Below the pieces are notes generated by a model. That model was given only the letters and a program-made list of their open reading frames with translations. It ran no database searches and was not told the origin of the DNA. A DNA stretch of 32,000 nt from Nitrosopumilus maritimus SCM1 (GTDB lineage Archaea > Thermoproteota > Nitrososphaeria > Nitrososphaerales > Nitrosopumilaceae), in assembly GCF_000018465.1 (NCBI RefSeq), contig NC_010085.1:270001-302000 (forward strand), in the 5' to 3' direction. Both the position numbers and the translations under genes were made by a program. Shown in pieces: positions 2,261 to 27,375 of this stretch. Position 1 is the stretch's first letter. Each line of letters opens with the position of its first letter.

Positions 2261-2569
2261 TTACATCTCTACAAATACGCTATCTGATTCAACTGTCACG
2301 TTGTATGATGTTAAATCTCTAATTTTTGCTGGAAATTTTACTAGTTTTCCTGTTTTACAATCAAACTCTGCAGCATGCCATCCACATGTAACAACACAGC
2401 CGTCTAATTTTCCCTCTGAAAGACTTGCACCAGAATGAGTACACGAGTCATCTGTTGCACAATACTCTCCGTCGATATTTGCAACGAGTATGTCTCTTCC
2501 GTCAATAGATACCTTGATCATTTTTCCAGGAGGAATATCTGATATTTTTCCTGCAATAATTTTTCCCAT
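2261..2569 (-). CDS. Rieske [2Fe-2S] domain protein (small Rieske-type ferredoxin)
   Basis: 102 aa. Both Rieske cluster-binding boxes are present: C-T-H (CTHSGASL) and C-G-W-H (VTCGWHAAEFD), with canonical spacing. Confidence 0.85.
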   Translation of the reverse strand: MGKIIAGKISDIPPGKMIKVSIDGRDILVANIDGEYCATDDSCTHSGASLSEGKLDGCVVTCGWHAAEFDCKTGKLVKFPAKIRDLTSYNVTVESDSVFVEM

Positions 2570-2611
2570 TGAAGTTTTTATTTAATAATGCTTAATATTT
2601 TTTCGTAATAC

Positions 2612-3388
2612 ATGATTAGAAATGCAAAACCTTCTGACAAATCTCAAGTTTTGAAATTTTGCCAAAATACTTTTTCTTGGGGTGATTATGTAGAACATGT
2701 TTGGGATTATTGGTTAAATGAGGATTTGCTATTTGTTTATGAAAAACAATTTCCTGTTGGTATTTGTCATGCATTTTTTTCAAAGAACCAAATATGGATT
2801 GAAGGAATTAGGGTAGACTCAAATTTTCGAAAACAGAAAATCGCATCTGAACTTGTAAGTCATGTTGAATCGATAGGACAAAAAAATAATGCATTATTTT
2901 CATTCATGCTGATAGATGTTGAAAATTCAATTTCGCTTTCTATGGCTAAATCTCTTAAATATCAACTCTTAGAAATCTGGAATTTTTATTCACTTGAGCC
3001 TAAAAAAAACTCTAATTTTGATATCATCTTTGCAAAATCTTTAGATGCTTCTCTTTACCCTCATTACGTAAAGTCGTGGAGATGGCTTCCAATTGATAAT
3101 ACAATAGTGTCTGAACTTGTACAACAAAATAAAATAATTCAATCACAAATTAATGGTGAAGTTTCCACTGCAATTCTTTCTGATTCTGAGCATTTTGATA
3201 ATACACTGATTGTTACGTTATTTTCAGGCTCAGAAAAAACATCTTTACAAATAATCTTGTTCTTACAAAACTATGCTATAGAAAATAACTATAATCGAAT
3301 TCAAATATTGAGTACAGAAAAATTATTTGATTTAGAATTTTTAGATCATAAGCTTTCTTTTCATTTGTTGAGAAAAACTCTAGATTGA
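2612..3388 (+). CDS. GNAT-family N-acetyltransferase with uncharacterised C-terminal half
   Basis: 258 aa. It starts MIRNAKPSD and has the motif-A-like IEGIRVDSNFRKQKIASELVSHVE typical of GNAT acetyl-CoA binding. The C-terminal ~130 aa are unassigned. Confidence 0.7.
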   Translation: MIRNAKPSDKSQVLKFCQNTFSWGDYVEHVWDYWLNEDLLFVYEKQFPVGICHAFFSKNQIWIEGIRVDSNFRKQKIASELVSHVESIGQKNNALFSFMLIDVENSISLSMAKSLKYQLLEIWNFYSLEPKKNSNFDIIFAKSLDASLYPHYVKSWRWLPIDNTIVSELVQQNKIIQSQINGEVSTAILSDSEHFDNTLIVTLFSGSEKTSLQIILFLQNYAIENNYNRIQILSTEKLFDLEFLDHKLSFHLLRKTLD

Positions 3389-4254: not shown

Positions 4255-5964
4255 TCACTTGTGTGTAAAAATTGCCTGATTCTGTGAATCTTTTCTACAA
4301 TATCCAAACCTAACAAATTGAATTTCTTCTCCTTCCTTTAATTGAAGATACTGGGGTTCTGTATAAACGTCTAATTCTTCTAAACTATCTTCATTAAATT
4401 CTTCATCATTGAATAAAATTTTTGGAATAATCATTTTAATTTCATGTGCTGTTTTTTGTGGAACCCATTGAATTTTCAATATATTTGATGAATCTCCATC
4501 TCTCTCAAACTCTCCTTCTAATTCATTACCGATTTTTGTAATCTTGACATTACCTAATCCTAAAAGTCTGATTGTTGATTGTTCTTTGATTGCTTCTGAA
4601 TCGTCTCCAGAAATGTAAAAATCTTCAGTGATTTCGATTTTTCTTTTACCCAAATCATTTATTGGATGATTAGGAACTTCAACTATTGTTGATTGCAAAT
4701 TTTTTATTTTCAATTTTTTAGCATTTTTAACCATAAACAATCGCATACTATCTGCATCTACAAATTTCCTATTGAATGCCTCAAGAGCATCAAATGGTGC
4801 AAGTGTATTTGCTTTTGTTAGTCCCAAAGACATGATAAATTTTCTAATTGCCTCAGGTTTGATTCCTCTTCTTCTTAGTGCCTCTAGAGTTGGAAGTCTA
4901 GGATCATCATACCATGAAACTTTACCTTCTTCAATTAGGGGCTTGATTATTCTCTTTGATATGGGCATTCCTTTGAATTCGAGCCTGGAAAAAAAACCTT
5001 GTTGAGGTTTTCTCATGCCTAGTGCATCTAAAATTGCATCTATGAGTTCTTTTCTCAACTCAAATTCTTTTGAACGAAATGCGTGTGTGACACCATCTAT
5101 GCTATCTTCAATTGCCACTGCAAAATCATAACTAGGCCAAATTCTGTATTTGTCACCTACTGTGTAATGTTTTTCATCAATGATTCGTAATAGTACGGGA
5201 TCTCTCATAACTGCATTATCTGCTTTCATATCTCCACGAAATCTAACTATTGCTTCACCTGGTTTGAACTTGTTTTGCATCTTTTCCCAATTTTTGTTGT
5301 TCTTCCCAACATCTTCCATACTGCATTTGCAAGCTTTTCTTTCTCTACGATTTTGACTAATGTCTTCTCTTTTACAAGTACAAACATATGCTTTACCAGA
5401 ATTAATTAATTCAATTCCTTTTTCATAAAATACTTCCATGTCATCAGAAGTACTTTTTACTTGATCAAATTCAATTCCCAACCATTCTAACCCTACTTTG
5501 ATTGCAGCATGATACTCCATTCTTTCAGCTTCAGGATTAGTATCATCCATTCTGAGTATAAATTTTCCTCCATACATCTTTGCATATTCTGAATTAATTA
5601 TTGCAGCTTTTGCATGTCCTATGTGTGGATAACCATTAGGTTCTGGAGGAAATCGTGTAACAACTTTTCCTTGTATTGCATCTTTCAGTTCTGGTAATCC
5701 TTCCCTTTCTTCTATTTTTTCTTTAGGTGCTAATGCTTCTGGGAATTTCTCTTCCATCTCTTTTTGTTGTTCTTCTGGTGATAGTTGATTTACTGATGCA
5801 ACAATTTCTGAAATCTCTCCTGAAATTTCTTTTACTTTTGTTCTAAATTCTGGTTTTGTTCCAAGAATTTTCCCTAAAATTATTTTATCCTGAGTTTGCC
5901 CTCCATGCTCAAAAGCATTCTGAAGAGCCATTTTTCTAATCTCGTGTTTTATTTCTTCATCCAT
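4255..5964 (-). CDS. gltX: glutamate--tRNA ligase (archaeal-type GluRS)
   Basis: 569 aa. Class-I HIGH motif (PNGYPHIGHAKAA), archaeal/eukaryal GluRS core (RFRGDM, WPSYDFAVAIEDSIDGVTH) and a KMSKS-equivalent (GMPISKR). Confidence 0.9.
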   Translation of the reverse strand: MDEEIKHEIRKMALQNAFEHGGQTQDKIILGKILGTKPEFRTKVKEISGEISEIVASVNQLSPEEQQKEMEEKFPEALAPKEKIEEREGLPELKDAIQGKVVTRFPPEPNGYPHIGHAKAAIINSEYAKMYGGKFILRMDDTNPEAERMEYHAAIKVGLEWLGIEFDQVKSTSDDMEVFYEKGIELINSGKAYVCTCKREDISQNRRERKACKCSMEDVGKNNKNWEKMQNKFKPGEAIVRFRGDMKADNAVMRDPVLLRIIDEKHYTVGDKYRIWPSYDFAVAIEDSIDGVTHAFRSKEFELRKELIDAILDALGMRKPQQGFFSRLEFKGMPISKRIIKPLIEEGKVSWYDDPRLPTLEALRRRGIKPEAIRKFIMSLGLTKANTLAPFDALEAFNRKFVDADSMRLFMVKNAKKLKIKNLQSTIVEVPNHPINDLGKRKIEITEDFYISGDDSEAIKEQSTIRLLGLGNVKITKIGNELEGEFERDGDSSNILKIQWVPQKTAHEIKMIIPKILFNDEEFNEDSLEELDVYTEPQYLQLKEGEEIQFVRFGYCRKDSQNQAIFTHK

Positions 5965-5985
5965 TGTAATTACCTGATATGATGT

Positions 5986-6966
5986 CTAGACACTTCTCTT
6001 AACTACAAAATCTAATAATGCAATAAGTTCAGTTTTTGCTGAACCAGAGTATTTTGAGAGTGATTTTTCGGCTTTTTCAGCGTATTTTAGTGCCTGTCTC
6101 CTGACACTGTCTTCAATACCAAGAGAACGAATTACATCTACTGCCTTGTTCAGATCATTTCTTGAAATTTTTGAATTTCCAAATGCCTTTAAAATAATTT
6201 TTTTATCTTTGCCTTTTGCGAGCTTTATTGCCATTAGTATTGGAAGTGATTTTTTACCTTCTCGAAGATCATTACCTACTGGTTTTTTTGTAATTTTTGG
6301 ATCTCCCATCACACCAATCAAGTCATCAGTAATTTGAAATGCAATTCCTAGGTTTCTTCCAAATGATGAAAGATTTGAAATGTCTTTGCCTTTATTTGTA
6401 GCACATATTGCTCCCATTGCACAGGATACATCAAACAATGCTGCAGTTTTCTTTCCAATCATTGTAATGTATTGCGATTGTGTAGGAATTTTTTTTTCTT
6501 CAGCCATTTTGACATCAAGTAGTTGTCCCTCACAAACATCTACACATGCTTTTGCAAGTCGTGAGATAAGATGTGTTGTTGCAGTTGGTGATAATTTTGT
6601 ATCTGAAATTACTTGATATGCTTTTGAAAATAACACATCTCCTGCAAGAATTGCAATCGGCATGCCGTATTTTCTATGTGTGGTTGGAACTCCGTGACGC
6701 ATTTCATCATTATCCATAATGTCATCGTGAACTAAAGTAAAATTATGAACCATTTCCACTGCACTAGCTGCTGGCATTGCATTGGAAGATTTTCCTCCCA
6801 AAATTTGACAACTTCTAATTACCATGTATGGCCTGAGTCTTTTTCCTCCATGAACTATAAGATGACCTGCAGCATCATAGAGTTTTTTTGGATTACCTTT
6901 TAGTTTTGATTTAAGATACTTGTTTACAGTTTTTGCATTTTTTTCAATTTGTTTAGTTTTTTTCAT
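5986..6966 (-). CDS. idsA: polyprenyl (geranylgeranyl) diphosphate synthase
   Basis: 326 aa. First Asp-rich motif LVHDDIMDND and second Asp-rich motif FQITDDLIG of trans-prenyltransferases. Chain length cannot be read from the sequence by eye. Confidence 0.85.
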   Translation of the reverse strand: MKKTKQIEKNAKTVNKYLKSKLKGNPKKLYDAAGHLIVHGGKRLRPYMVIRSCQILGGKSSNAMPAASAVEMVHNFTLVHDDIMDNDEMRHGVPTTHRKYGMPIAILAGDVLFSKAYQVISDTKLSPTATTHLISRLAKACVDVCEGQLLDVKMAEEKKIPTQSQYITMIGKKTAALFDVSCAMGAICATNKGKDISNLSSFGRNLGIAFQITDDLIGVMGDPKITKKPVGNDLREGKKSLPILMAIKLAKGKDKKIILKAFGNSKISRNDLNKAVDVIRSLGIEDSVRRQALKYAEKAEKSLSKYSGSAKTELIALLDFVVKRSV

Positions 6967-7603
6967 TTACTAATCTCCATTTTTCTTCTGGCAAATGTGT
7001 TTTGATTGCATTTTGCAATCCTTCATGAACCTCATTCGTCATCCATGTAGATAAGATATTTGCATGTTTTTCAAGCACAGATTTATCTGATTTTTCAAGT
7101 AATTCTAATGCAATTAACATCCATGGACAATAAATTTCAGGTTTTGTTTTGATTTCTGAAAGTAATTCATCAGCTGAACTCCATTTTATTTCGTCTATCT
7201 CGCCTTCAATCTCTTTTAGTTCTGTCGATTTGTCAATTACTCCAATTAATGTTCCACAAATTTCATTTTCTGAACCTACATCTTTGTATGGCACATGATA
7301 TTCGAATTTGTGTAAATAATCTAATTTTCCTTCAATACCTAATTCTTCAGGCATTCTTCTTTCACCTGATGAGACATAAGTTTCTGATTCTCTAGGATGG
7401 CTTGCAAATGTTCCATCCCAATCTCCTGGCCATAACATTTTTTCTTTTGCCCTTCTTGTTAGTACCAGTCTTCCACTATCATCAAACAATAATGCAGTAA
7501 ATGCTCTGTGTAGTTTTCCATTTGGCAAATGACATTTTACTTTCTCTTCTTTTCCAATCGGATTATCGTTTTCATCTACTAAGATAACAAATTCTTCAGC
7601 CAT
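6953..7603 (-). CDS. idi: isopentenyl-diphosphate delta-isomerase, type 1 (Nudix-fold)
   Basis: 216 aa. LHRAFTALLFDDSGRLVLTRRAKEKMLWPGDWDGTFASHP...ERRMPEELGI is the IDI-1 pattern. It overlaps idsA by 14 nt and shares 1 nt (TAATG) with the ipk stop. Confidence 0.85.
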   Translation of the reverse strand: MAEEFVILVDENDNPIGKEEKVKCHLPNGKLHRAFTALLFDDSGRLVLTRRAKEKMLWPGDWDGTFASHPRESETYVSSGERRMPEELGIEGKLDYLHKFEYHVPYKDVGSENEICGTLIGVIDKSTELKEIEGEIDEIKWSSADELLSEIKTKPEIYCPWMLIALELLEKSDKSVLEKHANILSTWMTNEVHEGLQNAIKTHLPEEKWRLVNEKN

Positions 7604-17066: not shown

Positions 17067-17651
17067 CTATTCTTTTTTCTCCTCTGCAGCTGGTGCTGCT
17101 TCTGCTGGTGCTGCTTCTGCAGCTGGTGCATCTGTAGTTGGAGCTGCTGCGGCTGCTGGCGCATCAGATGATGATTTCTTTGCAGGAGCTGCCATACCAC
17201 CTTTTGCAACACCGACTGCTCCACCTTTTCTACCTGATGTTCTTGTTCTTTGTCCTCTTACTTTGAGACCGCTAAGATGACGATAACCTCTCCAACTTGC
17301 AGTAACTCTTTCTCTTTCAATATCATTTCTTAATGTAAATGGAATATCTGATGTTAGCAAATGCAAATCATTGCCAGTTTCAATGTCTTTTCTTCTGTTG
17401 AGGAACCATGTTGGAAAGTTGCCTTCAGCTGGATTTGTAATTAGTTTCTCAATTGCTTGAACATTTTCATCGGTAAGGTGACCAATGTTTGAGTTTGAAT
17501 CAATGTTTAATGTGTCTAGAATTGCTGTGGCAAAATTATATCCAATCCCCTTGATCTGAGTGAGTCCAACTAGCATCTTTCTCTCTCCTGGGATATCGTT
17601 TCCCACAATCCTAACAATGTGTCTATATTCTTGAGTGCTCAAGTATTCCAA
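17067..17651 (-). CDS. rps13: 30S ribosomal protein uS13 with Ala/Pro-rich C-terminal extension
   Basis: 194 aa. [21 protein letters not shown] and [12 protein letters not shown] motifs. No in-frame ATG exists: an in-frame TGA lies at 17657-17655, and the TTG start is at 17651 or 17642. The 17642 option gives (M)[11 protein letters not shown] and better TATA spacing. The C-terminal 42 aa are A/P/E-rich. Confidence 0.88.
17091..17120. repeat. perfect 15-bp tandem duplication inside the rps13 tail
   Basis: tggtgctgcttctgc occurs at 17091-17105 and again at 17106-17120, encoding the duplicated AEAAP. Confidence 0.85.
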
Positions 17652-17983: not shown

Positions 17984-18292
17984 ATGGCAGATACTTTTGA
18001 TCGCGAAAAAGTTGTAGATTGCATGTTTGATCCTGTGACATCTTCAATTTTAGCAGAATTAGAAGACGGTGAAAAAACATGTTCATCTTTGGCACAACAA
18101 GCATCTATTTCTGAATCTGAGGTTTTGGAAAGACTGTCTTATTTGATAGAACATGAATTTATCATAAAAAATACTGATGGTGAAACTACTCTTTCTGCAA
18201 ATTCTGAAAAACTTAGTAGTATCGTTGAGAGTGGAGATAACTTTGATGAAACCATTAGCAGTCTTGAAAAAATGGATAGTTATCTAAACTGA
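17984..18292 (+). CDS. small winged-helix (ArsR/TrmB-like) transcriptional regulator
   Basis: 102 aa. SSILAELEDGEKTCSSLAQQASISESEVLERLSYLIEHEFIIKNTDG has helix-turn-helix plus wing spacing. By-eye call. Confidence 0.6.
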   Translation: MADTFDREKVVDCMFDPVTSSILAELEDGEKTCSSLAQQASISESEVLERLSYLIEHEFIIKNTDGETTLSANSEKLSSIVESGDNFDETISSLEKMDSYLN

Positions 18293-18787
18293 TTTTTTCT
18301 TACTTTTAATTTTGTAAATACCAGAACCTACCAATCCAACCATTCCAATTATCAAAATATATGCTGAAACAAAACTAAGTGATTTCTTTCCAGCATCTGG
18401 AAGTGGTCCTATTGCACCAAATACTTGAATATCTTCATTTGAATCAGTTTGAATGATTAATTTGTAAGATCCTGTGTCCGTAATGTCAAATTCTTCTTCA
18501 ATAGTTTCTTCATCTACATTTTTTGATACTATTTCATTACCAAACGGATCTAAAATTTTGGCTGAAACTGTATTCTCCTTAAACTCCATTACTTGTACTG
18601 CAAAAACCCCTGTGGCAGATTCTTCTGAATTAAATTCTCCTGAAATAGTCAGATCTTGACTTGAATTGATTTTCCCATTACCTTGGAAAACACCTTCTAG
18701 AATTACCTGGTTTCCAGCTGCAAGCAAAATTAATCCAACCACAATTAATGTGCCTGAAACAACTAGGATGATTCCAGCCTTTTCCAT
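18284..18787 (-). CDS. membrane protein with N- and C-terminal TM helices flanking an extracytoplasmic beta-rich domain
   Basis: 167 aa. TM1 is GIILVVSGTLIVVGLILLAAG and TM2 is FVSAYILIIGMVGLVGSGIY, followed by a KIKSKKKSV tail. The central domain contains ..ILDPFGNEIV...GSYKLIIQ. Confidence 0.7.
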   Translation of the reverse strand: MEKAGIILVVSGTLIVVGLILLAAGNQVILEGVFQGNGKINSSQDLTISGEFNSEESATGVFAVQVMEFKENTVSAKILDPFGNEIVSKNVDEETIEEEFDITDTGSYKLIIQTDSNEDIQVFGAIGPLPDAGKKSLSFVSAYILIIGMVGLVGSGIYKIKSKKKSV

Positions 18788-18838: not shown

Positions 18839-18892
18839 TTTAGCCCTGTTTAACAAAGTTAGATTGGGCTAAGAAAGTTAGCTTAGGTTAAA
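18839..18892. promoter_or_regulatory. cluster of TTAG/CTAA symmetry elements (candidate metalloregulator operator)
   Basis: Inverted repeat TTAGCCC (18840-18846) / GGGCTAA (18866-18872). Palindrome GCTAA-N5-TTAGC (18868-18882). Direct repeat AAAGTTAG at 18855-18862 and 18874-18881. Pentamer run TTAGC-TTAGG-TTAAA (18878-18892). The cluster directly abuts the TATA box at 18893. Confidence 0.45.
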
Positions 18893-18900
18893 TTTAAATA
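18893..18900 (+). promoter_or_regulatory. TATA box (TTTAAATA) for the metal ABC transporter operon
   Basis: Matches the archaeal TTTAWATA consensus. Centred 29.5 nt upstream of the ATG at 18926. Confidence 0.5.
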
Positions 18901-18925
18901 AACTTTTCACAACTTCTTTTTAGAA

Positions 18926-19897
18926 ATGAAAAAACCGATCATTATTACAACTGTAGTAATTGCAGCAATAATTGCAGGATTGTCATCTACTGTTTTTACT
19001 CAAAACAACAGTTCTGATGAAATTATTCTTAGTGATGCAGAACAATCTGCTGGCAATACTGAAACAATTATGGTTACAACTACCACCAATGTTGTAACCG
19101 ATCTTGTTGAAAATATTGGTGGAGACAATGTGTCGGTTACCGGATTAATGGGACCTGGCGTGGATCCTCATTTGTATCGTCCCAGCGCAAATGATGTAAA
19201 AAAACTTCAGGATGCTGATATTGTATTTTACAATGGTTTAGACTTGGAAGGAAAAATGGGTGACATATTTGTAAAAATAGGACGAGAAGGAACAGCAGTG
19301 TGGGCTGTATCTGAAAATATTTCCCATGAATCACTCTTGAGTCTTGATAATACAGGTCATTTTGATCCCCATATTTGGTGGGATGCAGAATTGTGGATGG
19401 AGGCAGCTAAAGTTGTTGCAACTGGATTAAGTGAATATGATCCAGAAAATTCCCAAGCATATGAAAAAAATCTTCAAGAGTATTTGACACAATTAGAAGA
19501 ACTTGATCAAGATAGTTTAGAGAAGATGAATTCTATTTCCCAAGGACAACGAGTTCTTGTAACTGCTCATGATGCCTTTCAGTATTTTGGTCATGCTTAT
19601 GGTTTAGAGGAGATGGCAATTCAGGGATGGAGCACTGATAGTGAAGCTGGAATAAGAGAGATTCAAAATTTAGCTGATGAAATATCTGAGAGAAAGATAA
19701 AAGCCGTATTTGTAGAAACTACTATTTCTCCTGCCACAATTGAGGCTTTGACTGCTGCAGTTCAGGATAAAGGACATGATGTTGTGATTGGTGGCAAATT
19801 ATTCTCAGATGCCATAGGTGAAAAGGGAACTAGTGAAGGAACCTATGTTGGAGCTTTTACACACAATGTTGAGACAATTGTGAATGCATTGAAATGA
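18926..19897 (+). CDS. metal ABC transporter substrate-binding protein (cluster A-I, TroA/ZnuA/PsaA-like)
   Basis: 323 aa. N-terminal signal/anchor (IIITTVVIAAIIAGLSS). Metal-ligand motifs GVDPHLY, FDPHIWWD, VTAHDAFQYF and LFSDAIG give a His/His/His/Asp pattern as in TroA. No His-rich loop. Confidence 0.85.
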   Translation: MKKPIIITTVVIAAIIAGLSSTVFTQNNSSDEIILSDAEQSAGNTETIMVTTTTNVVTDLVENIGGDNVSVTGLMGPGVDPHLYRPSANDVKKLQDADIVFYNGLDLEGKMGDIFVKIGREGTAVWAVSENISHESLLSLDNTGHFDPHIWWDAELWMEAAKVVATGLSEYDPENSQAYEKNLQEYLTQLEELDQDSLEKMNSISQGQRVLVTAHDAFQYFGHAYGLEEMAIQGWSTDSEAGIREIQNLADEISERKIKAVFVETTISPATIEALTAAVQDKGHDVVIGGKLFSDAIGEKGTSEGTYVGAFTHNVETIVNALK

Positions 19898-20664
19898 TGG
19901 AGCAAAAATCGGTTCGAAGAAACATGAATGACGAACAAACATTTCCAATTGAAATCAAACATCTTTCTGTTACCTATCGTACTGAACCTGCATTATGGAA
20001 TTTAGATCTAAATCTACCTGAAGGACAATTAATTGCAATTGTTGGTCCAAATGGTGCAGGTAAATCTACTTTGATAAAAGCAGTAATGGGATTGGTTCCA
20101 ATCACTGCAGGCAAAGTAAGCATTTATGGAAAACAATATTCAAAACAAAGAAGCAAAGTGGCGTATGTTCCACAACGTGGAACTGTTGATTGGGATTTCC
20201 CTACTGATGCATTAGATGTTGTAGAGATGGGGCTTTATGGAAAACTTGGATGGTTACGTCGTCCTAATTCTCAAACAAAAGAGAAAGCAAGAGAATGTTT
20301 GGAAAAAGTTGGGTTAAAGGATTATGCAGATAGACAAATTGGTCAGTTGTCTGGAGGCCAACAACAAAGAGTATTCCTTGCAAGAGCTTTGGCCCAGGAT
20401 CCTCAAATTTATCTTATGGATGAGCCATTAAACGGAGTTGATGCAATTACAGAAGAGACAATACTCTCAATTCTTGAGGATCTAAAAAAAGAAGGAAAGA
20501 CAATTGTGATGGTTCATCATGATCTGCAAACTGTGGACAAGTATTTTGATTGGGTTGTAATGCTAAATAGGAATCTGATATCTGCTGGACCAATAAAAGA
20601 AGTATTTACAAAAGAAAATTTGGATATTGCGTATCAAGAAAAACAACGCATGTCTATTCAATAA
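19894..20664 (+). CDS. metal ABC transporter ATP-binding protein (TroB/ZnuC-like)
   Basis: 256 aa. Walker A GPNGAGKST, signature LSGGQQQR, Walker B IYLMDEP and H-loop VHHD. ATGA overlap with the upstream gene. Confidence 0.9.
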   Translation: MMEQKSVRRNMNDEQTFPIEIKHLSVTYRTEPALWNLDLNLPEGQLIAIVGPNGAGKSTLIKAVMGLVPITAGKVSIYGKQYSKQRSKVAYVPQRGTVDWDFPTDALDVVEMGLYGKLGWLRRPNSQTKEKARECLEKVGLKDYADRQIGQLSGGQQQRVFLARALAQDPQIYLMDEPLNGVDAITEETILSILEDLKKEGKTIVMVHHDLQTVDKYFDWVVMLNRNLISAGPIKEVFTKENLDIAYQEKQRMSIQ

Positions 20665-20679
20665 CATAAAAGATGTAGA

Positions 20680-21624
20680 ATGGTTTTAGAAGAAATACTG
20701 ACTATCTTTGTAGGGATTTTTACTGATTATACTCTCAGGTATGTTGCTCTTGGTTCTGCTATTTTAGGAATAACTAGTGGTGCTTTGGGATGTTTTACTG
20801 TTCTACGAAAACAGAGCTTGTTTGGGGATGCTTTAGCTCATGCTGCATTACCAGGTATTGGATTTGCGTATCTTTTTGCTGGAACAAAAGATTCACTGCT
20901 CTTGATGTTGGGAGCTGCAGTGTTTGCATGGTTTGGTGGAATTGTTACATTGACAATTACAAGTACTACAAGAATAAAGCAAGATGCAGCACTTGGAATA
21001 ACCCTCTCAGTTTTTTTCGGTCTTGGAATTGTTCTTCTTACATACTTGCAGAGTATTGGAGGTGCAAGTCAAGGTGGATTGGATAGATTTCTTTTTGGAC
21101 AAGCAGCTGCTTTGATAGAAACAGATATCATAAATCTAGGAATTTTGGCAGCAGGATGTTTTGTAGTTCTGATAATATTTTTCAAAGAGCTAAAAATTGC
21201 AACATTTGATAGTGTATTTGGACAAAGTTTAGGTTTTCCAACAAAATACTTTAGTGCATTATTAACATCTGTAATAGTTGTAGCAGTTGTTATTGGTCTG
21301 CATACTGTTGGTGTAGTCTTAATGGTTTCAATGCTTATAGCTCCTGCGGCTGCAGCAAGGCAATGGATATCTAGTTTGAAAAGTATGTTGATTCTTTCTG
21401 CTATATTTGGAGGTGTAAGTGGTGTGATTGGTTCTATGATTAGTAGTACTACAGAAGGAATGTCTACAGGCCCTGTTATTGTAATTACAATTACTACCAT
21501 ATTGGGCATCTCTCTTTTCTTTTCTCCAAAAAATGGATATCTTTTCCAATACATCCGTAAGAGAAAACAGCGTCAAAGTAACTTTAATGAAATCAATACT
21601 ATTTCAGGAGAAAACTCAAATTGA
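20680..21624 (+). CDS. metal ABC transporter permease (ABC-3 family, TroC/ZnuB-like)
   Basis: 314 aa, polytopic. GDALAHAALPGIG and LIAPAAAAR motifs typical of ABC-3 permeases. Confidence 0.85.
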   Translation: MVLEEILTIFVGIFTDYTLRYVALGSAILGITSGALGCFTVLRKQSLFGDALAHAALPGIGFAYLFAGTKDSLLLMLGAAVFAWFGGIVTLTITSTTRIKQDAALGITLSVFFGLGIVLLTYLQSIGGASQGGLDRFLFGQAAALIETDIINLGILAAGCFVVLIIFFKELKIATFDSVFGQSLGFPTKYFSALLTSVIVVAVVIGLHTVGVVLMVSMLIAPAAAARQWISSLKSMLILSAIFGGVSGVIGSMISSTTEGMSTGPVIVITITTILGISLFFSPKNGYLFQYIRKRKQRQSNFNEINTISGENSN

Positions 21625-22727
21625 TAGAGATATCTAATGATCTAATTATTATTGGAACTGCTGTACTAGTTGCAGCAAATTGTGCATCAATTGGAACTTT
21701 CTTAGTTTTAAGACAAATGGCCATGATGTCTGATGCCATTAGTCATGCTGTATTATTAGGAATAGTAATTGCCGTGTTTATGGTTGGAGGTCGAGAAACT
21801 ATTCCCGTAATAGTTGGAGGTGTACTGTCTGGTATCTTGACTGTTTCAATTGTAGAGATGCTTTATCGTACAGGTAAACTAAAACAAGACAGTTCCATTG
21901 GCATCGTCTTTCCATTTCTTTTTGCAATTGGTGTGATACTTGTCACACAAGCTGGTAATGTACACATTGATGCACAACATGTACTGTATGGTTCAATTGA
22001 ATTTGTACCATTTGACACACTATATCTTGATGAAATTAACATAGGTTCAAAATCTCTTTGGGTTCTTGGCGTTTTAGCAATTGCAAATATTTCTTTTATT
22101 GCAATTCTATACAAGGAACTAAAAATTAGCACTTTTGATGCTTCAGTTGCAGTAAGTGTTGGATTGATGCCCATGTTGATTCATTATTTGTTAATGATAA
22201 TGGTAGCTACAACTGCTGTTGTTGCTTTTGAATCAGTTGGTGCAATACTTGTCATTGCATTTTTCATAGTTCCTGCGTCTGGAGCTTATCTGTTAACCGA
22301 TAGATTATCTCATATGATAGCACTATCTGTAACACTGGGAACTATTAGTGCTATTGCAGGTTATCTGTTTGCAGTCTTACTTGATGTGTCGATAGCAGGC
22401 TCAATGGCCACAATTGCTGGTGCCATATTTGGATTAATCTGGGTATTTGCACCAAATCGAGGCTTGATTAGCAGATGGAGACGTATTACAAAACAAAGAT
22501 TCGAAATAGATTTGGGAATAGTTCTAACTTTCATTCAAGATGAGCTTAGCGCTAATCGTCAAGTATCCACTTCAACTTTATCGAATGCATTAGGGTGGAC
22601 AATAGATTACTCGAAAAAACTAAGTGAATTTATTCAAGAAAAAAAATTTATAGAAAAAGATGTTAGTGGAAATCTAATTCTAACAGTACTAGGACAAAAA
22701 AAGGCAAAGAACTACTCAACAACTTGA
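21621..22727 (+). CDS. metal ABC transporter permease (ABC-3 family, TroD-like) with ~75-aa C-terminal winged-helix-like extension
   Basis: 368 aa. TTG start in a TTGA overlap with the previous stop; the next ATG would delete TM1. SDAISHAVLLGI and FFIVPASGAY motifs. The tail after residue ~290 is soluble and HTH-like. Confidence 0.85.
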   Translation: MIEISNDLIIIGTAVLVAANCASIGTFLVLRQMAMMSDAISHAVLLGIVIAVFMVGGRETIPVIVGGVLSGILTVSIVEMLYRTGKLKQDSSIGIVFPFLFAIGVILVTQAGNVHIDAQHVLYGSIEFVPFDTLYLDEINIGSKSLWVLGVLAIANISFIAILYKELKISTFDASVAVSVGLMPMLIHYLLMIMVATTAVVAFESVGAILVIAFFIVPASGAYLLTDRLSHMIALSVTLGTISAIAGYLFAVLLDVSIAGSMATIAGAIFGLIWVFAPNRGLISRWRRITKQRFEIDLGIVLTFIQDELSANRQVSTSTLSNALGWTIDYSKKLSEFIQEKKFIEKDVSGNLILTVLGQKKAKNYSTT

Positions 22728-22744: not shown

Positions 22745-24097
22745 TTATTCTGGTTCTGGATGAATTGTAATTACCGCATTTTTGATTTCTTCTCTTATAA
22801 TATGCTCAATCTCTGATGTCAAGTCGTGAACCTTTTCAATTGATAGTTCCTTATCAAATGAACAATCAATGTCAATTTTGAGTATATTTTTAAAGTTTAG
22901 TGAGACTATTCTTCCAATTTTCTTAATTTCAGAATATTTCTCTAAAATTATCTTTATTTTTTCCTCAGTAATTTTGTCTTCTAGATCAAAATTTTCTGGA
23001 ACTGTAACAAATGGTTCCAAGTGAATTGTGGCGTGTTCTATTTCTGGAATATTTTCTTGTATTTTCTGTTCTATAATTTCAGAGATTTTGTGAGCTAATG
23101 ATAGATTTATCTCTCTATCAACCATTACATGCAAATCTGAAAATGTTCTTCCTTTAGTTTTATGAGTACTTACATTGTGCACCCCTCTTACTCCTTCTAC
23201 ACTTTTTGCAATATCTAGAATTTTTGCATCTAATGGAACATCTTCCCAATTGGGCTCAAAATGGATTGTAATTGAAGCATTTGGAATTTTATTTTTGATA
23301 TTTTTTTCTACATTACTGCTTATCTCATGCGCTCTATCAAAACTTGTGTCTCCTCTTAATGATATTGTAACATCTGCAAAAGTTGTATCTCCCGAACGTC
23401 TCATTAGTATTGGATCTGCACCAATAACTCCTTGAGTTGATGTGGCAATGTCTCTAACATTTTTGACAAGTTCTGGTGAAATAATATCTGTTAAATCAAG
23501 AGCTGTTTTGTAAACTAGTTTGACACTAAGTACTGCTAATAATCCACCTAAAATTAATGCTGCAAAAAAGTCACCATGATACAAACCATAAGACACCAAA
23601 ACAATTCCAATAATTGCTACTAGTGTTGAACCAAGATCCATAAATGCATGATAGAAATCTGCTTTGAGAGTAGTACCTCCTATTTTTTGGATTGATCTTC
23701 TCAAAAGAATTATTCTAAATATGTCGACTCCTATTGTGTATAATCCGCCAATTATTGCAAACATTCCTGGTAGTATGTTTGGTGGTGGACTTTGAATTCT
23801 GTGAATTGACTCGTAAATGAAAAAACATGCAATCAGAAAAATTGCTATTCCTCCAATTAATCCCCCTAATGATTCAATTTTTCCATGGCCATAGGTATGT
23901 TCTGCATCTGGTGGTTTTATTGCCATTCTTGCAGCTAAAAGTAACACAAGAGTTACTACACTGTCAAGTAATGCATGAATACTGTCTGTGATAAGTGCCA
24001 AACTATTGGAAACAAGACCGAAAACCAATTCTACTAAAAATGCTGAAAAAATAGCCAAAAGTGAAATCTGTAATACCTTGGTTCTTTGTACAAACAT
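22745..24097 (-). CDS. cation diffusion facilitator (CDF) family metal efflux transporter with triplicated cytoplasmic domain
   Basis: 450 aa. TM2 ITDSIHALLD and TM5 FYHAFMDLG give an H-D/H-D site-A quartet. Three consecutive ~75-aa units end in ITIHFEP, ATIHLEP and ITIHPEP. Confidence 0.88.
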   Translation of the reverse strand: MFVQRTKVLQISLLAIFSAFLVELVFGLVSNSLALITDSIHALLDSVVTLVLLLAARMAIKPPDAEHTYGHGKIESLGGLIGGIAIFLIACFFIYESIHRIQSPPPNILPGMFAIIGGLYTIGVDIFRIILLRRSIQKIGGTTLKADFYHAFMDLGSTLVAIIGIVLVSYGLYHGDFFAALILGGLLAVLSVKLVYKTALDLTDIISPELVKNVRDIATSTQGVIGADPILMRRSGDTTFADVTISLRGDTSFDRAHEISSNVEKNIKNKIPNASITIHFEPNWEDVPLDAKILDIAKSVEGVRGVHNVSTHKTKGRTFSDLHVMVDREINLSLAHKISEIIEQKIQENIPEIEHATIHLEPFVTVPENFDLEDKITEEKIKIILEKYSEIKKIGRIVSLNFKNILKIDIDCSFDKELSIEKVHDLTSEIEHIIREEIKNAVITIHPEPE

Positions 24098-24183
24098 CTT
24101 ATTTTCTAATAATCTATATCACGTATTACAAGTTTCTAAGTAGGAATCATACGATAACGTTATTTGGAAAGAGACTTCATTTT

Positions 24184-27100
24184 TTGATATTGGATAAAAA
24201 TTGGCTATTTTTGCTAGGAATTTTCTCATTAATTCTAATTCCATCCATGAATGCTGATGCATCTAGTAATCCAAATCTTTCAGTATCTGCTGAAAATTCA
24301 GAATTTGGTAATCTTTTTGCAGGATCTATGGTAATTGAAGTAGTTATTCGTGATTCCAATATCTCTGACACTGATGAAGGCAAAGGCGAACCTGATGTCA
24401 CCATTAATGGTAAAACACTACGTATGGTTCAAGCTACAGATGGAAATTGGTATGCATATTTTGCAAATGTTGACAAGGCAAAAATTGCTGATGCTACTGT
24501 TGGTTTAACTGGTAAAGGATTAGACTTTGGAGAATTCTGTAGTCGTGATACTACAACATCTGTTTTTGGAATATCTCTAAGTGAAACTGATGGTTTTGCA
24601 ATTCCTAGGCCTGATTCTGTTACTGGATCTACAAACGGCAACTCATCTTTTTCTGAATGCACTTCAAGTCCTACAACCACTTCTAATCATAACAATGTCG
24701 TTAGAAATGCAAAATCAATCAATACAAATTCTAACATATCTGTTGGTCAAATTGGTTTAGATGCTGATGCATGGCCATTAATTCAACTTTATTCTTTTGA
24801 TGACGTAACAATACAATACAATCCTGGCGGACCTTCCCAACAAGTGTATCTTGATTATGATGAAATTGAGAATATCAGTTTAGGACTTGATAGGGAACTG
24901 TATCCTGAAAATTCTGAAGTATTTCTAACTATTAATGACATTCAGCTAAACCAAGATCCAACTGATGAAGACTCTTGGACATTTAATGTTGATTCTACTG
25001 TAAGTACATTTTATCAAGCATTTGATAATTCTGGAAATGATGATGCAAACGGAAATGCTGGATTGGTAAATCTTGTTCCACATCTTTCAAATTTAGGATT
25101 TGACGATAATGGAAAATTATCTCTCAACCTTGGAAATATTATGGAATTAAAAACAAACAATGACCAACCTGATTCTTCTATTGATGCTGATGGAGTGTCA
25201 AATACGTTTTCTAAAATTGTAACCCTAGTTGAACAAGGACCCAACTCTGGAATCTTCTCTAGTTCTGATTCTAATGATCAATCAGTAATCGGTATCAAAG
25301 ATGATGCACCTAGAGGACAATCTGGACAAATAACATACAACCAAAAATCTATTTCGGTAGTCTCTGGTTCTTCTACAGCTTCTGTTTCTTTTGATGATAA
25401 ACCTGTTTTAACAATAGGAAATGGTGACTCACTTAGGCCTGGTACTGAATATCCTGTATTGTTAGTTGATCCTGATCAAAATCTGAATACTGGTGCTAGA
25501 GATGATCTTGATGTCTTTAGAGACTCTGCAATTATTCCAACACTCACAATAGGGAATCCCATAACTTTGGAGAATGCAAACAGTGTTGAATTCCATTCTA
25601 CTTCTCCTACTATCTCTGGAGGTGATGATTCTAATTCATCTGTTCCTGATTCAAATTCTGCTATCTTACTAATTGACACCTCAAATGTCTCTAATGCTTC
25701 TTATGAGATGATATCGATTAATCTGGGTATTTCTGCCTTGTCTTTGGCATCCTCACTCATAGATTCTTCAGAATCTAATACTGATGGAACAAACTGGATA
25801 AATTATGATCTAAGATCTCTTGAAAATGAACTAGGACTTTCTGATTTTAGCAGTACTACATTTGCCCTTGCATTTGGAACCCGTGATTCTACTCAGATTG
25901 TAATTGTAGATGATGGTGATGTGTCGTCTTCTCAAGGATTTATTCAAATTGATAATGATGATGTTGAAAACATTAAAACAAAAACTGGCAATGTTTTTCT
26001 AATCATTGATTTTGATTCTTCTGACACAGTTACAATTTCTAATGAATCAAACAAACTTCCAATGGTTTTTGACTTTTTTTCATTTGGATTAAAAAATGAT
26101 AATAGTATAAACAATTCTATTTATCGTTTTGAACTAGAAGAGACTCGAGATAATTCATCTACATTTGAAGGTAGTCTTGAATATGCAGTTACAAATCAAC
26201 TAAACATAGTTGATCCAAATTTTATTCAAACTATTCAAACAATCGATGATGAAATAAAAATTATCATTACTGATAGATTAATTGATGAAGAAGGAATTGC
26301 AATCTCCTATGCTGATTTAGATTCATCTGGCGTGACAACAACGACTACAAGTAAATCTGATGCTGCAACGCATTCAGGAAATGTTTCTCTAGATTCAACA
26401 ACATTTCGATTTGGGCAACCAGTAACAATTACACTTAGCGACTCTGATCTTAATTTGAAAAGTGATACCGTTGAAATTTATTCAGTGATCAATGATTCAA
26501 ACTCTGCCAACGTTGATACTGTAGGTAAAGACGGGGAAATCTTACTAGAGATTAAAATCAAAGATATTCGTTACAAACGATGTACTGTCAATGGAGTTGA
26601 GCATGGTGGTTTAGCCTCTACTGGATTTACACTTGTAGAAACAGGACCTAGCACTGGAATATTTGCAGGAGTGTTCAAAATGCCATCTCAGATTTGTGAC
26701 AAAACAGGCTCAAAACTAATCTATACCTCTGGTGGAAGTATTGATGTTCGTTATCATGACTCTCGTGATGCTTCTGGAAATGCAAATATTTTCAGTTTGC
26801 TTGATTCAAAGTCATCTGTATCATTTTACACTCCTGCCAAATTAAGCCTAGAAAAAATGGTACTTCCTATGAGTGATTCAAAAGAAATAGTTCTGACAGG
26901 AAGTATTGAAAATCATAAACGAGGAATTCCATTATCTATTGAACTTACAAATCCTGATTACACAAAACAAAACTTTGGCGCGTCTCTAAGTAATAGCGGA
27001 GGTTATCGTTCTGTATTCACTATTAATCCAAATACTTTGCTTGGAACATATTTTGTATCCCTTTCATATGATGGTAAAAACCTTGGAACTCTCTCATTTG

Positions 27101-27375
27101 ATGTAGTTTCTGAAAATGTTCCTGATTGGGTAAAAAATAATGCTCGTTGGTGGTCTTCAAACAATATATCTGATGATGAATTTATTGGTGGAATAGAACA
27201 TCTAATTGAGACAGGAATAATTTCTATTGATTCCTCTGAACAAAATTCGACAGAACAAGAAATTCCCGATTGGATAAAAAATACTGCAAGATGGTGGGCA
27301 GATGATCAGATTCCAGAAGATGAGTTCTTAAAATCGATTCAATATTTGGTCAAAAAAGGTATAATTCAGGTATGA
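24184..27375 (+). CDS. large secreted Asp/Ser/Asn-rich surface protein with two C-terminal Trp-rich repeats
   Basis: The ORF is open from 24061, but the track's GTG start overlaps the divergent CDF gene by 37 nt. The first usable in-frame starts outside that gene are TTG 24184 and TTG 24190. These give (M)ILDKNWLFLLGIFSLILIPSMNA|DA, a good signal peptide. The first ATG (24247) lies after the hydrophobic core. Many N-x-S/T sequons and repeated ..L.D.D.N.. / ..LVE(T/Q)GP(N/S)(S/T)GIF.. modules. Confidence 0.75.
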   Translation: MILDKNWLFLLGIFSLILIPSMNADASSNPNLSVSAENSEFGNLFAGSMVIEVVIRDSNISDTDEGKGEPDVTINGKTLRMVQATDGNWYAYFANVDKAKIADATVGLTGKGLDFGEFCSRDTTTSVFGISLSETDGFAIPRPDSVTGSTNGNSSFSECTSSPTTTSNHNNVVRNAKSINTNSNISVGQIGLDADAWPLIQLYSFDDVTIQYNPGGPSQQVYLDYDEIENISLGLDRELYPENSEVFLTINDIQLNQDPTDEDSWTFNVDSTVSTFYQAFDNSGNDDANGNAGLVNLVPHLSNLGFDDNGKLSLNLGNIMELKTNNDQPDSSIDADGVSNTFSKIVTLVEQGPNSGIFSSSDSNDQSVIGIKDDAPRGQSGQITYNQKSISVVSGSSTASVSFDDKPVLTIGNGDSLRPGTEYPVLLVDPDQNLNTGARDDLDVFRDSAIIPTLTIGNPITLENANSVEFHSTSPTISGGDDSNSSVPDSNSAILLIDTSNVSNASYEMISINLGISALSLASSLIDSSESNTDGTNWINYDLRSLENELGLSDFSSTTFALAFGTRDSTQIVIVDDGDVSSSQGFIQIDNDDVENIKTKTGNVFLIIDFDSSDTVTISNESNKLPMVFDFFSFGLKNDNSINNSIYRFELEETRDNSSTFEGSLEYAVTNQLNIVDPNFIQTIQTIDDEIKIIITDRLIDEEGIAISYADLDSSGVTTTTTSKSDAATHSGNVSLDSTTFRFGQPVTITLSDSDLNLKSDTVEIYSVINDSNSANVDTVGKDGEILLEIKIKDIRYKRCTVNGVEHGGLASTGFTLVETGPSTGIFAGVFKMPSQICDKTGSKLIYTSGGSIDVRYHDSRDASGNANIFSLLDSKSSVSFYTPAKLSLEKMVLPMSDSKEIVLTGSIENHKRGIPLSIELTNPDYTKQNFGASLSNSGGYRSVFTINPNTLLGTYFVSLSYDGKNLGTLSFDVVSENVPDWVKNNARWWSSNNISDDEFIGGIEHLIETGIISIDSSEQNSTEQEIPDWIKNTARWWADDQIPEDEFLKSIQYLVKKGIIQV

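Follow-up and report, generated by a model that had tools for sequence, protein, structure and literature searches.

Metal importers of cluster A-I (the ABC-3 family of ATP-binding cassette [ABC] transporters) provide the main high-affinity uptake of Mn, Zn, and Fe in bacteria and in the abundant marine ammonia-oxidizing archaea, and the posttranslational control of such importers is only starting to be understood. We analyzed a 32,000-nt stretch of the genome of Nitrosopumilus maritimus SCM1 (NC_010085.1, positions 270,001 to 302,000; GC content of ~33%), here called the window, whose own coordinates are used throughout. It encodes an importer of this kind in which the second permease carries, after its last transmembrane (TM) helix, a winged-helix tail related to the DNA-binding domain of DtxR-family repressors.

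The importer genes form a single operon on the + strand, in the order solute-binding protein (SBP), ATPase, short permease, long permease. The first gene (18926 to 19897) encodes a ZnuA/TroA-type SBP of 323 amino acids (aa; PF01297, E = 7.1e-82), the second (19894 to 20664) an ABC ATPase subunit of 256 aa (PF00005, E = 6.5e-33), and the third (20680 to 21624) an ABC-3 permease of 314 aa (permease 1; PF00950, E = 3.2e-65), the partner membrane subunit, in which the match to the permease profile stops at residue 299 and which has no winged-helix tail. The fourth gene (21621 to 22727), which begins with a TTG start codon, encodes an ABC-3 permease of 368 aa (permease 2). The synteny of this SBP/ATPase/permease operon is kept in archaeal loci (L006 to L009), and unrelated bacteria (L003 and L004) have the same gene order, with the short permease before the long one. 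With 368 aa, its position as the second permease of the operon, and a cytoplasmic tail after the ninth TM helix (TM9), permease 2 has the layout of a TroD-type protein, for which about 366 to 370 aa and a tail of ~85 aa are usual, and we concluded that it is the TroD-type (long) permease subunit of a cluster A-I/ABC-3 metal importer composed of an SBP, an ATPase, a short permease, and a long permease.

The membrane domain of permease 2 (residues 1 to 276; 21621 to 22448) is conventional. PF00950 covers residues 13 to 272 with an E value of 1.2e-43 and a score of 150 bits against a gathering cutoff of 20.1, and the permease PsaC (7kyp) is matched by phmmer with an E value of 7.5e-29. In that alignment, SDAISH of permease 2 falls on GDAISH of PsaC, and D38 and H42, which are invariant or nearly so among relatives, align with the PsaC metal coordination pair D46/H50 in TM2. 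A full-length AlphaFold2 (AF2) model (mean predicted local distance difference test [pLDDT] score of 84.3) has nine long helices plus coupling helices in a PsaC-like arrangement, and Foldseek matches it to PsaC over the membrane domain only (E = 8.5e-15, TMt of 0.86). Neither the phmmer nor the Foldseek comparison revealed a similar tail on a solved ABC-3 permease. A short beta-hairpin insertion, EFVPFDTLYLDEINIGSKS, predicted with low confidence, lies between TM4 and TM5 (21996 to 22049, residues 126 to 143; pLDDT of ~50) and faces a gap in the PsaC alignment, having no counterpart there.

In the full-length model, TM9 spans residues 258 to 276, and 92 residues follow it: a turn, APNRG (277 to 281), a basic helical linker, LISRWRRITKQRFE (282 to 295; turn and linker together at 22449 to 22505), and a 73-residue winged helix-turn-helix (wHTH; residues 296 to 368, 22506 to 22724). 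The C-terminal translation of the open reading frame (ORF) reads ...IWVFAPNRGLISRWRRITKQRFE, then IDLGIVLTFIQDELSANRQVSTSTLSNALGWTIDYSKKLSEFIQEKKFIEKDVSGNLILTVLGQKKAKNYSTT, then stop, exactly as quoted in an earlier model-made annotation of the sequence (the first-pass annotation), which had called for a check of the topology of the tail. The two solved ABC-3 permeases, PsaC and ZnuB, each have nine TM helices and cytoplasmic coupling helices, and the purification of PsaC made use of a C-terminal green fluorescent protein fusion. Because of this topology, because four TM passes follow the coupling helices in permease 2, and because the linker carries a net charge of about +5, the tail is cytoplasmic. 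AF2 also joined the basic linker and helix 1 of the winged helix into one continuous helix (282 to 310), so that the tail would sit on a rigid stalk rather than a floppy linker. The model thus places the wHTH in rigid attachment to the cytoplasmic side of TM9.

Fold and parentage of the tail

Pfam and NCBIfam assign no family to the last ~90 residues of permease 2 (a lone MerB match at E = 0.019 was spurious). The window protein and 49 tails did not reach the threshold of PF01325, the family of the DtxR N-terminal domain, in Pfam scans. The scan of the 49 single tails and a profile search of Protein Data Bank (PDB) sequences gave only subthreshold matches, mostly to winged-helix families; one of those in the PDB search, to the DtxR-family entry 5zr4 at E = 0.85, is no evidence by itself.

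The relationship emerged from structure and from more sensitive comparisons. AF2, given an alignment of 49 tails, modeled the tail (pLDDT of 91.7, predicted TM score [pTM] of 0.80) as a wHTH with helices at 3 to 22, 29 to 36, 40 to 52, and 68 to 78 and wing strands at 56 to 58 and 64 to 66 in tail-model numbering. In the numbering of the protein, the winged helix is predicted over residues 296 to 367, with helix 1 extending to 310, helix 2 at 317 to 324, the recognition helix (helix 3) at 328 to 340, the wing at 344 to 354, and helix 4 at 356 to 367. L324, W326, Y330, K333, D347, L354, T355, and G358 are its conserved residues. When the PDB was searched with Foldseek, the best matches were the N-terminal domains of DtxR, IdeR, and MntR (root mean square deviation of 1.0 to 1.2 Å over 65 to 69 residues, TMq of 0.76 to 0.80), with MarR-family proteins interleaved among them; the E values, 2.5e-3 to 1e-2, are modest because the domain is short. 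Independently, a search of 1.84 billion representative sequences with a profile of the tail returned 22 proteins at E ≤ 0.001 and reached true members of the DtxR family, namely, one with Fe_dep_repress plus Fe_dep_repr_C (P0135, E = 7.9e-6) and one with a wHTH, Fe_dep_repr_C, and FeoA (P0145, E = 7e-4). Finally, hhalign aligned the tail with authentic DtxR repressors whose operons also contain a gene for a tail-bearing permease; the probability was 94.2% and the E value 1.1e-7 over 61 columns, in register with the repressors' DNA-binding domain between the end of alpha-1 and the beginning of alpha-4. Tail and repressors have in common a core of V, L, and L and an L-T-x-x-G-x-x-x-A signature at the junction of the wing and alpha-4.

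By three independent routes (structure, exhaustive sequence search, and profile-profile comparison), the tail is therefore DtxR-N-like, and the claim of the first-pass annotation that permease 2 ends in a winged-helix module of this kind was borne out. The annotation was also right that no metal-binding or dimerization domain comes after the tail: the protein ends about ten residues into the equivalent of DtxR alpha-4, nothing follows, and a Pfam scan of permease 2 gave no match to PF02742, the dimerization/metal-binding domain. The tail thus shares wHTH topology and signature with DtxR, IdeR, MntR, and TroR (PF01325) but differs from them in lacking PF02742 and all of the metal ligands, in being fused to a membrane protein, in its near-neutral charge, and in the invariant Trp that starts its recognition helix, which DtxR proteins do not have.

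Distribution of the tail and a bacterial ligand cluster

The first-pass annotation had read the tail as a possible and unusual fusion of transporter and regulator, the remnant of a TroR-like repressor occupying the place where a separate repressor gene would be expected. Its distribution does not agree with this. The tail is kept in all of ~120 full-length close relatives (363 to 368 aa) and in a more distant archaeal clade with 58% identity (383 to 393 aa), and since W326 and G358 are invariant throughout, chance read-through is excluded. Among the proteins from the exhaustive search were, in addition, distant bacterial ABC-3 permeases of 369 to 373 aa that have a related tail in the corresponding place, and a profile of bacterial tail permeases matched 4,745 proteins at E ≤ 1e-20. 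Every one of the best 120 of these is 366 to 394 aa long; they come from Calditrichota, Anaerolineales, Roseiflexaceae, Gemmatimonadaceae, Rhodothermales, Thermomicrobiales, Deltaproteobacteria, Poribacteria, and other taxa. Archaeal and bacterial tails are homologous (hhalign probability of 98.6%, E = 5.2e-16, 79 columns) and follow a common pattern, P-x-R-G...Q-R...L-x-W...L-T-x-x-G, in which W326 and G358 are universal. P278, R280, G281, Q292-R293, W326, an aromatic residue at 330, L354-T355, and G358 are kept in both domains of life, and those among them that belong to the linker region (P278, R280, G281, Q292, and R293) are near-universal across bacteria and archaea. We concluded that the TroD-type permeases of bacteria and Nitrosopumilaceae have this tail by descent, as a trait of the whole family. 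In Caldilineaceae, Phycisphaerales, Thermomicrobiales, and Chloroflexia (L001, positions 5879 to 6997; L010, L026, L048, and L083), both permeases bear tails, giving two tails per transporter there against one in Poribacteria, in the archaea, and in the window.

The bacterial operons showed in addition that the tail does not stand in for a repressor. A full-length DtxR-family gene (~220 to 250 aa) on the same strand heads the tail-permease operon at 70 of the 90 loci that we fetched, a co-occurrence that is phylogenetically redundant because the genome scan, made with the single pattern [VI]HL[LF]xHEGLP, produced 80 loci dominated by Poribacteria. The same combination in one operon was also seen in Caldilineaceae, in Ignavibacteria, and in an unclassified metagenome-assembled genome. 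As the full-length DtxR gene lies in the same operon, the bacterial tail coexists with the canonical repressor and does not replace it. Treponema provides a characterized parallel: TroD (366/367 aa) is, like permease 2, the second permease of an SBP-ATPase-short-long permease operon (troABCDR, for a Mn/Zn/Fe importer), TroC has 304/298 aa, and TroR is the product of a separate gene (PMC2628430). This DtxR-family troR gene lies directly after troD, a difference from the archaeal locus, where none was seen. Since Treponema has both TroD and TroR, the premise that the tail fills the place of a missing TroR fails. The homology of the treponemal tail rests on length, architecture, and the winged helix predicted at the C terminus of T. 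pallidum TroD in a 2026 preprint. Family-wide presence of the tail, together with separate DtxR/TroR genes, rules out a local fusion with, or remnant of, the operon repressor.

Nor is a permease joined to a DtxR-like domain new as such. The Chlamydia trachomatis protein YtgC-YtgR (CT069) is a permease-DtxR fusion, and such fusions have been reported in 11 bacterial phyla (PMC5599777). The YtgR part is an entire DtxR-like repressor in which the metal-coordinating residues are conserved; it is released as an ~28-kDa fragment and represses its own promoter with Fe2+ (PMC5599777). The likeness lies in an ABC-3 permease that bears a DtxR-like domain; the window protein differs in carrying the equivalent of the DNA-binding domain alone (~8 kDa), without the rest of a repressor, and in carrying it on the second permease, whereas the chlamydial fusion is on the TroC-like YtgC. 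TroD-type permeases typically have a tail limited to the DNA-binding domain, which has one earlier mention, in the structure prediction for T. pallidum TroD; we found no functional study of such a tail in the literature. The first-pass annotation would have been refuted by a tail universal among characterized TroD/MntD permeases and with a known nonregulatory role. Half of this applies: TroD-type permeases generally carry the tail, but the literature offered no demonstrated role for it, regulatory or other. The DtxR-like tail is thus standard equipment in a very large TroD-type subfamily, absent from Pfam and NCBIfam and usually found beside a canonical DtxR repressor.

Seven short proteins from the first search for tail homologs had the appearance of free-standing tail genes; they proved to be truncated gene calls. 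One (at L090) comes from a frameshift-ridden assembly, and a 106-aa "tail-only" ORF at L091 is a decaying 3' remnant left by a deletion. At L091 (positions 2300 to 3321 of the locus; a Nitrosopumilaceae contig of 313 kb), ~3.1 kb equivalent to 18898 to 21986 of the window is missing, taking with it the SBP, the ATPase, permease 1, and the first third of permease 2, and the promoter now adjoins the remnant. This points either to an operon that the lineage can do without or to an error in the low-coverage assembly. The tail-only ORFs in the databases are assembly artifacts or a deletion remnant and not a sign of a separate product.

The bacterial tails carry a set of potential metal ligands. Among 123 of them, H27 (122), H31 (122), E32 (111), E40 (122), H49 (118), and W52 (123) are near-invariant, and Cys41 (63) and H45 (80) are frequent; the resulting motif, IHLLxHE...E(C)...H..HLxW (L010 to L089, P0166 to P0283), has no Pfam annotation. 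H27/H31 and H45/H49 are spaced one helical turn apart on helices 1 and 2, with E40/C41 in the loop between them, an arrangement that suggests a likely intradomain metal site. The cluster is mostly gone from the archaea. Among 96 Nitrosopumilaceae tails, His27 is kept in 76 and Glu replaces His31 in 83, three residues are deleted, and the other cluster positions hold Lys/Gln, Val, Ser/Thr, and Ser/Ala. The window protein has F304, E308, a deletion, Q314, and A323 in this region, with F304, Q314, and A323 in place of the bacterial His, Glu, and His, and so does not show the TroD-type cluster. To judge from these alignments, the archaeal tail is a partly degenerate version of the bacterial one. 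The gene is accordingly better annotated as encoding a TroD-type permease with a degenerate DtxR-N-like winged helix than as a transporter-regulator fusion.

Possible functions of the tail

Three observations at the archaeal locus bear on what the tail may do: how it evolves, how it is charged, and what lies at the promoter. Between the window protein and its Nitrosopumilus piranensis counterpart, the ratio of nonsynonymous to synonymous substitution rates (dN/dS) was 0.046 for the membrane domain (93% identity), 0.044 for the basic linker (95%), and 0.435 for the winged helix (47%), values that are approximate because dS is 0.76 to 1.06 and thus near saturation. The winged helix is therefore still under purifying selection, but this is about ten-fold weaker than in the rest of the protein, and among relatives in which the transmembrane domains (TMDs) are 80 to 93% identical, the tails are 26 to 56% identical. 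The net charge of the wHTH is about 0 (+1 in the window, mean of -0.3 in Nitrosopumilaceae and -1.4 in bacteria), as against a mean of about +3.6 in the DNA-binding domains of the true DtxR proteins from these bacterial operons. D329 and E336 stand at positions that in DtxR correspond to a backbone contact or to R47, the latter being Arg in bacterial tails.

Upstream of the SBP gene, pattern matches and a search for inverted repeats identified an operator-like element (18855 to 18901) made up of two tandem AAAGTTAG-N6-CTAA units (18855 to 18872 and 18874 to 18891) that abut a TATA-like box, TTTAAATAA (~18893 to 18901). The boxes of these TTAG-N6-CTAA units are invariant in four Nitrosopumilaceae species or loci, and the TTAG/CTAA half-sites resemble those of DtxR boxes. 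The tandem palindromes are likely an operator for a dimeric repressor, overlapping the TFB-responsive element (BRE) and the TATA box. Since such an operator suits dimers and there is one tail per heterodimeric transporter, it probably belongs to a separate dimeric factor. A candidate lies nearby: a small + strand ORF (17984 to 18292) encodes an acidic 102-aa wHTH protein with an invariant Cys13 and weak ArsR/HTH_20 similarity (HTH_20 at E = 5.7e-5, below the Pfam cutoff; NF033788 at E = 2.4e-4), and its place beside the operon is conserved in L006, L007, L009, and L091. Across the same genome pairs, its identity is 85, 49, and 74%, against 47, 26, and 56% for the tail wHTH. This protein appears to be a better local candidate than the tail for the operator-binding factor or metalloregulator. 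A paralogous relationship between the two was considered and rejected (BLASTP E value of 21).

On balance, we lean toward a role of the tail in cis, as a docking or regulatory module of the transporter itself, metal sensing in bacteria and reduced to a metal-blind docking or structural remnant in Nitrosopumilaceae. In bacteria, it would sense metal through the H-x3-H-E...E-C...H-x3-H cluster and feed back on transport. The analogy that we favor for the bacterial tails is the zinc-sensing domain of ZnuC reported in 2025, a small cytoplasmic C-terminal domain of the ZnuABC ATPase with a conserved His/Cys motif (CxxxHxCC) that is proposed to shut transport at high cytoplasmic metal. Both would be small cytoplasmic C-terminal domains on a subunit of a cluster A-I importer, although one is on the ATPase and the other on the permease, fold and motif are unrelated, and the archaeal tail has no ligand cluster. 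Because most of its ligands are gone and constraint is relaxed, the Nitrosopumilus tail is probably metal blind and, partly degenerate, would have a structural or docking role only. A distinct dimeric factor bound at the tandem palindromes would control transcription of the operon, and the 102-aa ORF is the local candidate for it. A role in cis draws on the near-invariance of the bacterial cluster, on the rigid helix that connects the tail to TM9, on the fact that TM9 of PsaC lies where the TMDs dimerize, close to the exit of the pathway, and on the ZnuC precedent; a role as repressor is opposed by the separate DtxR gene at 70 of 90 loci, by the near-neutral charge, and by fast evolution of the tail beside an invariant operator.

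The same reading can be taken further, to a scheme that we think somewhat unlikely in its full form. The TroD-type winged helix would then be a widespread built-in control module, a DtxR fold co-opted to sense cytoplasmic metal through the bacterial cluster and to gate transport posttranslationally through its link to TM9, with the metal site lost and the module repurposed in ammonia-oxidizing archaea. One possible form of repurposing is a membrane-tethered domain that binds DNA or a partner and reports the state of the transporter to the TTAG-N6-CTAA operator. The ubiquity of the tail, the ligand cluster, and the coexisting repressor together make feedback control of metal import a testable hypothesis, and the wider family, with its conserved ligand cluster, is a more interesting lead than the window locus.

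Several points weigh against a role confined to the transporter. Metal binding by the bacterial cluster is suggested by conservation, and the placement of the tail against the ATPase or the membrane domain is deduced rather than seen directly; the near saturation of dS blurs the contrast in dN/dS. The remaining points favor a different explanation, namely, that the tail is a functional DNA-binding domain acting on the operator of its own operon, either tethered to the membrane, as the first-pass annotation had imagined, or released by proteolysis in the manner of YtgR, and that it couples the state or abundance of the transporter to transcription. The tail has the homology and the fold of DtxR-N; the DtxR counterparts of K332 and K333 face DNA; and conservation holds in the N-terminal half of the recognition helix (W326, T327, Y330, S331, and K333), as DNA binding would also lead one to expect. 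The operator, with its half-sites of DtxR-box type, is conserved too; neither the window nor four archaeal loci yielded a DtxR-family gene, and the tail is the sole DtxR-type DNA-binding domain seen at the archaeal locus. (A literature search on DtxR in Nitrosopumilus gave nothing useful.) By analogy with YtgC-YtgR, for which cleavage and autorepression have been described (PMC5599777), a permease-borne DtxR domain can be released and repress. We nevertheless consider this explanation unlikely. The tail has no dimerization or metal-sensing domain, and one copy per transporter is a poor match for a tandem palindromic operator. Its charge is near neutral, with the acidic D329 and E336 at the DtxR backbone contact or R47 sites. 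The wHTH diverges about ten-fold faster than the TMD although the operator is invariant, and the bacterial homologues live alongside a complete DtxR repressor in the same operon. Moreover, the tether is a rigid helix rather than a flexible linker, and a better-conserved small wHTH ORF adjoins the operon. The conserved operator thus most likely belongs to another factor.

Relaxed constraint raises the further question of whether the Nitrosopumilaceae tail does anything specific at all. It might be a vestigial appendage, retained as a stable or harmless fold or as an aid to folding or insertion, with no specific ligand or partner, and the loss of the bacterial His/Glu/Cys cluster, the three-residue deletion, the dN/dS of 0.435, the 26 to 56% identity of tails whose TMDs are 80 to 93% identical, and the absence of a Pfam match would all fit with this. 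Against it, the domain is intact, in frame, and of constant length in ~100 Nitrosopumilaceae sequences and is also present in the 58%-identity clade, W326, Y330, K333, D347, and G358 are surface capable and invariant or nearly so, and dN/dS is well below 1; one would expect streamlined genomes to have trimmed a 73-residue domain that served no purpose. We therefore regard a merely vestigial tail as rather improbable. Least probable of all, and in our view very doubtful, is an adaptor for a soluble partner that, at the pathway exit, would recruit a cytoplasmic metalloregulator or metallochaperone or supply it with imported metal, since the position of PsaC TM9 and the probable metal site and operon-borne DtxR gene of the bacteria would suit it, but it is purely inferential, with no partner identified, and archaeal tails have neither the ligands nor an adjacent DtxR gene.

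Neighboring genes

Upstream of the operon, the - strand (18284 to 18787) encodes a protein of 167 aa that has TM helices at both termini and a weak EMP24/GOLD-like match (E = 2.3e-4); its gene overlaps the end of the 102-aa ORF, diverges from the operon promoter, and is syntenic in all of the archaeal loci. Downstream, a convergent gene on the - strand (22745 to 24097) encodes a cation diffusion facilitator (CDF) metal exporter of 450 aa with a Cation_efflux domain and, where one ZT_dimer stretch is usual, three of them. A distance of 18 nt separates its end from the permease 2 stop codon, so that importer and exporter lie tail to tail, and the gene is syntenic in L007, L009, and L091. The CDF gene is followed on the + strand (24061 to 27375) by a gene for a Ser/Asn/Asp-rich protein of 1,104 aa, syntenic in L006, L007, and L091, where the products are 1,048 to 1,062 aa long and have no Pfam match on record. 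Farther upstream, the ribosomal protein S13 encoded on the - strand at 17067 to 17651 has a C-terminal extension of ~45 residues that is of low complexity and rich in Ala, Pro, and Glu.

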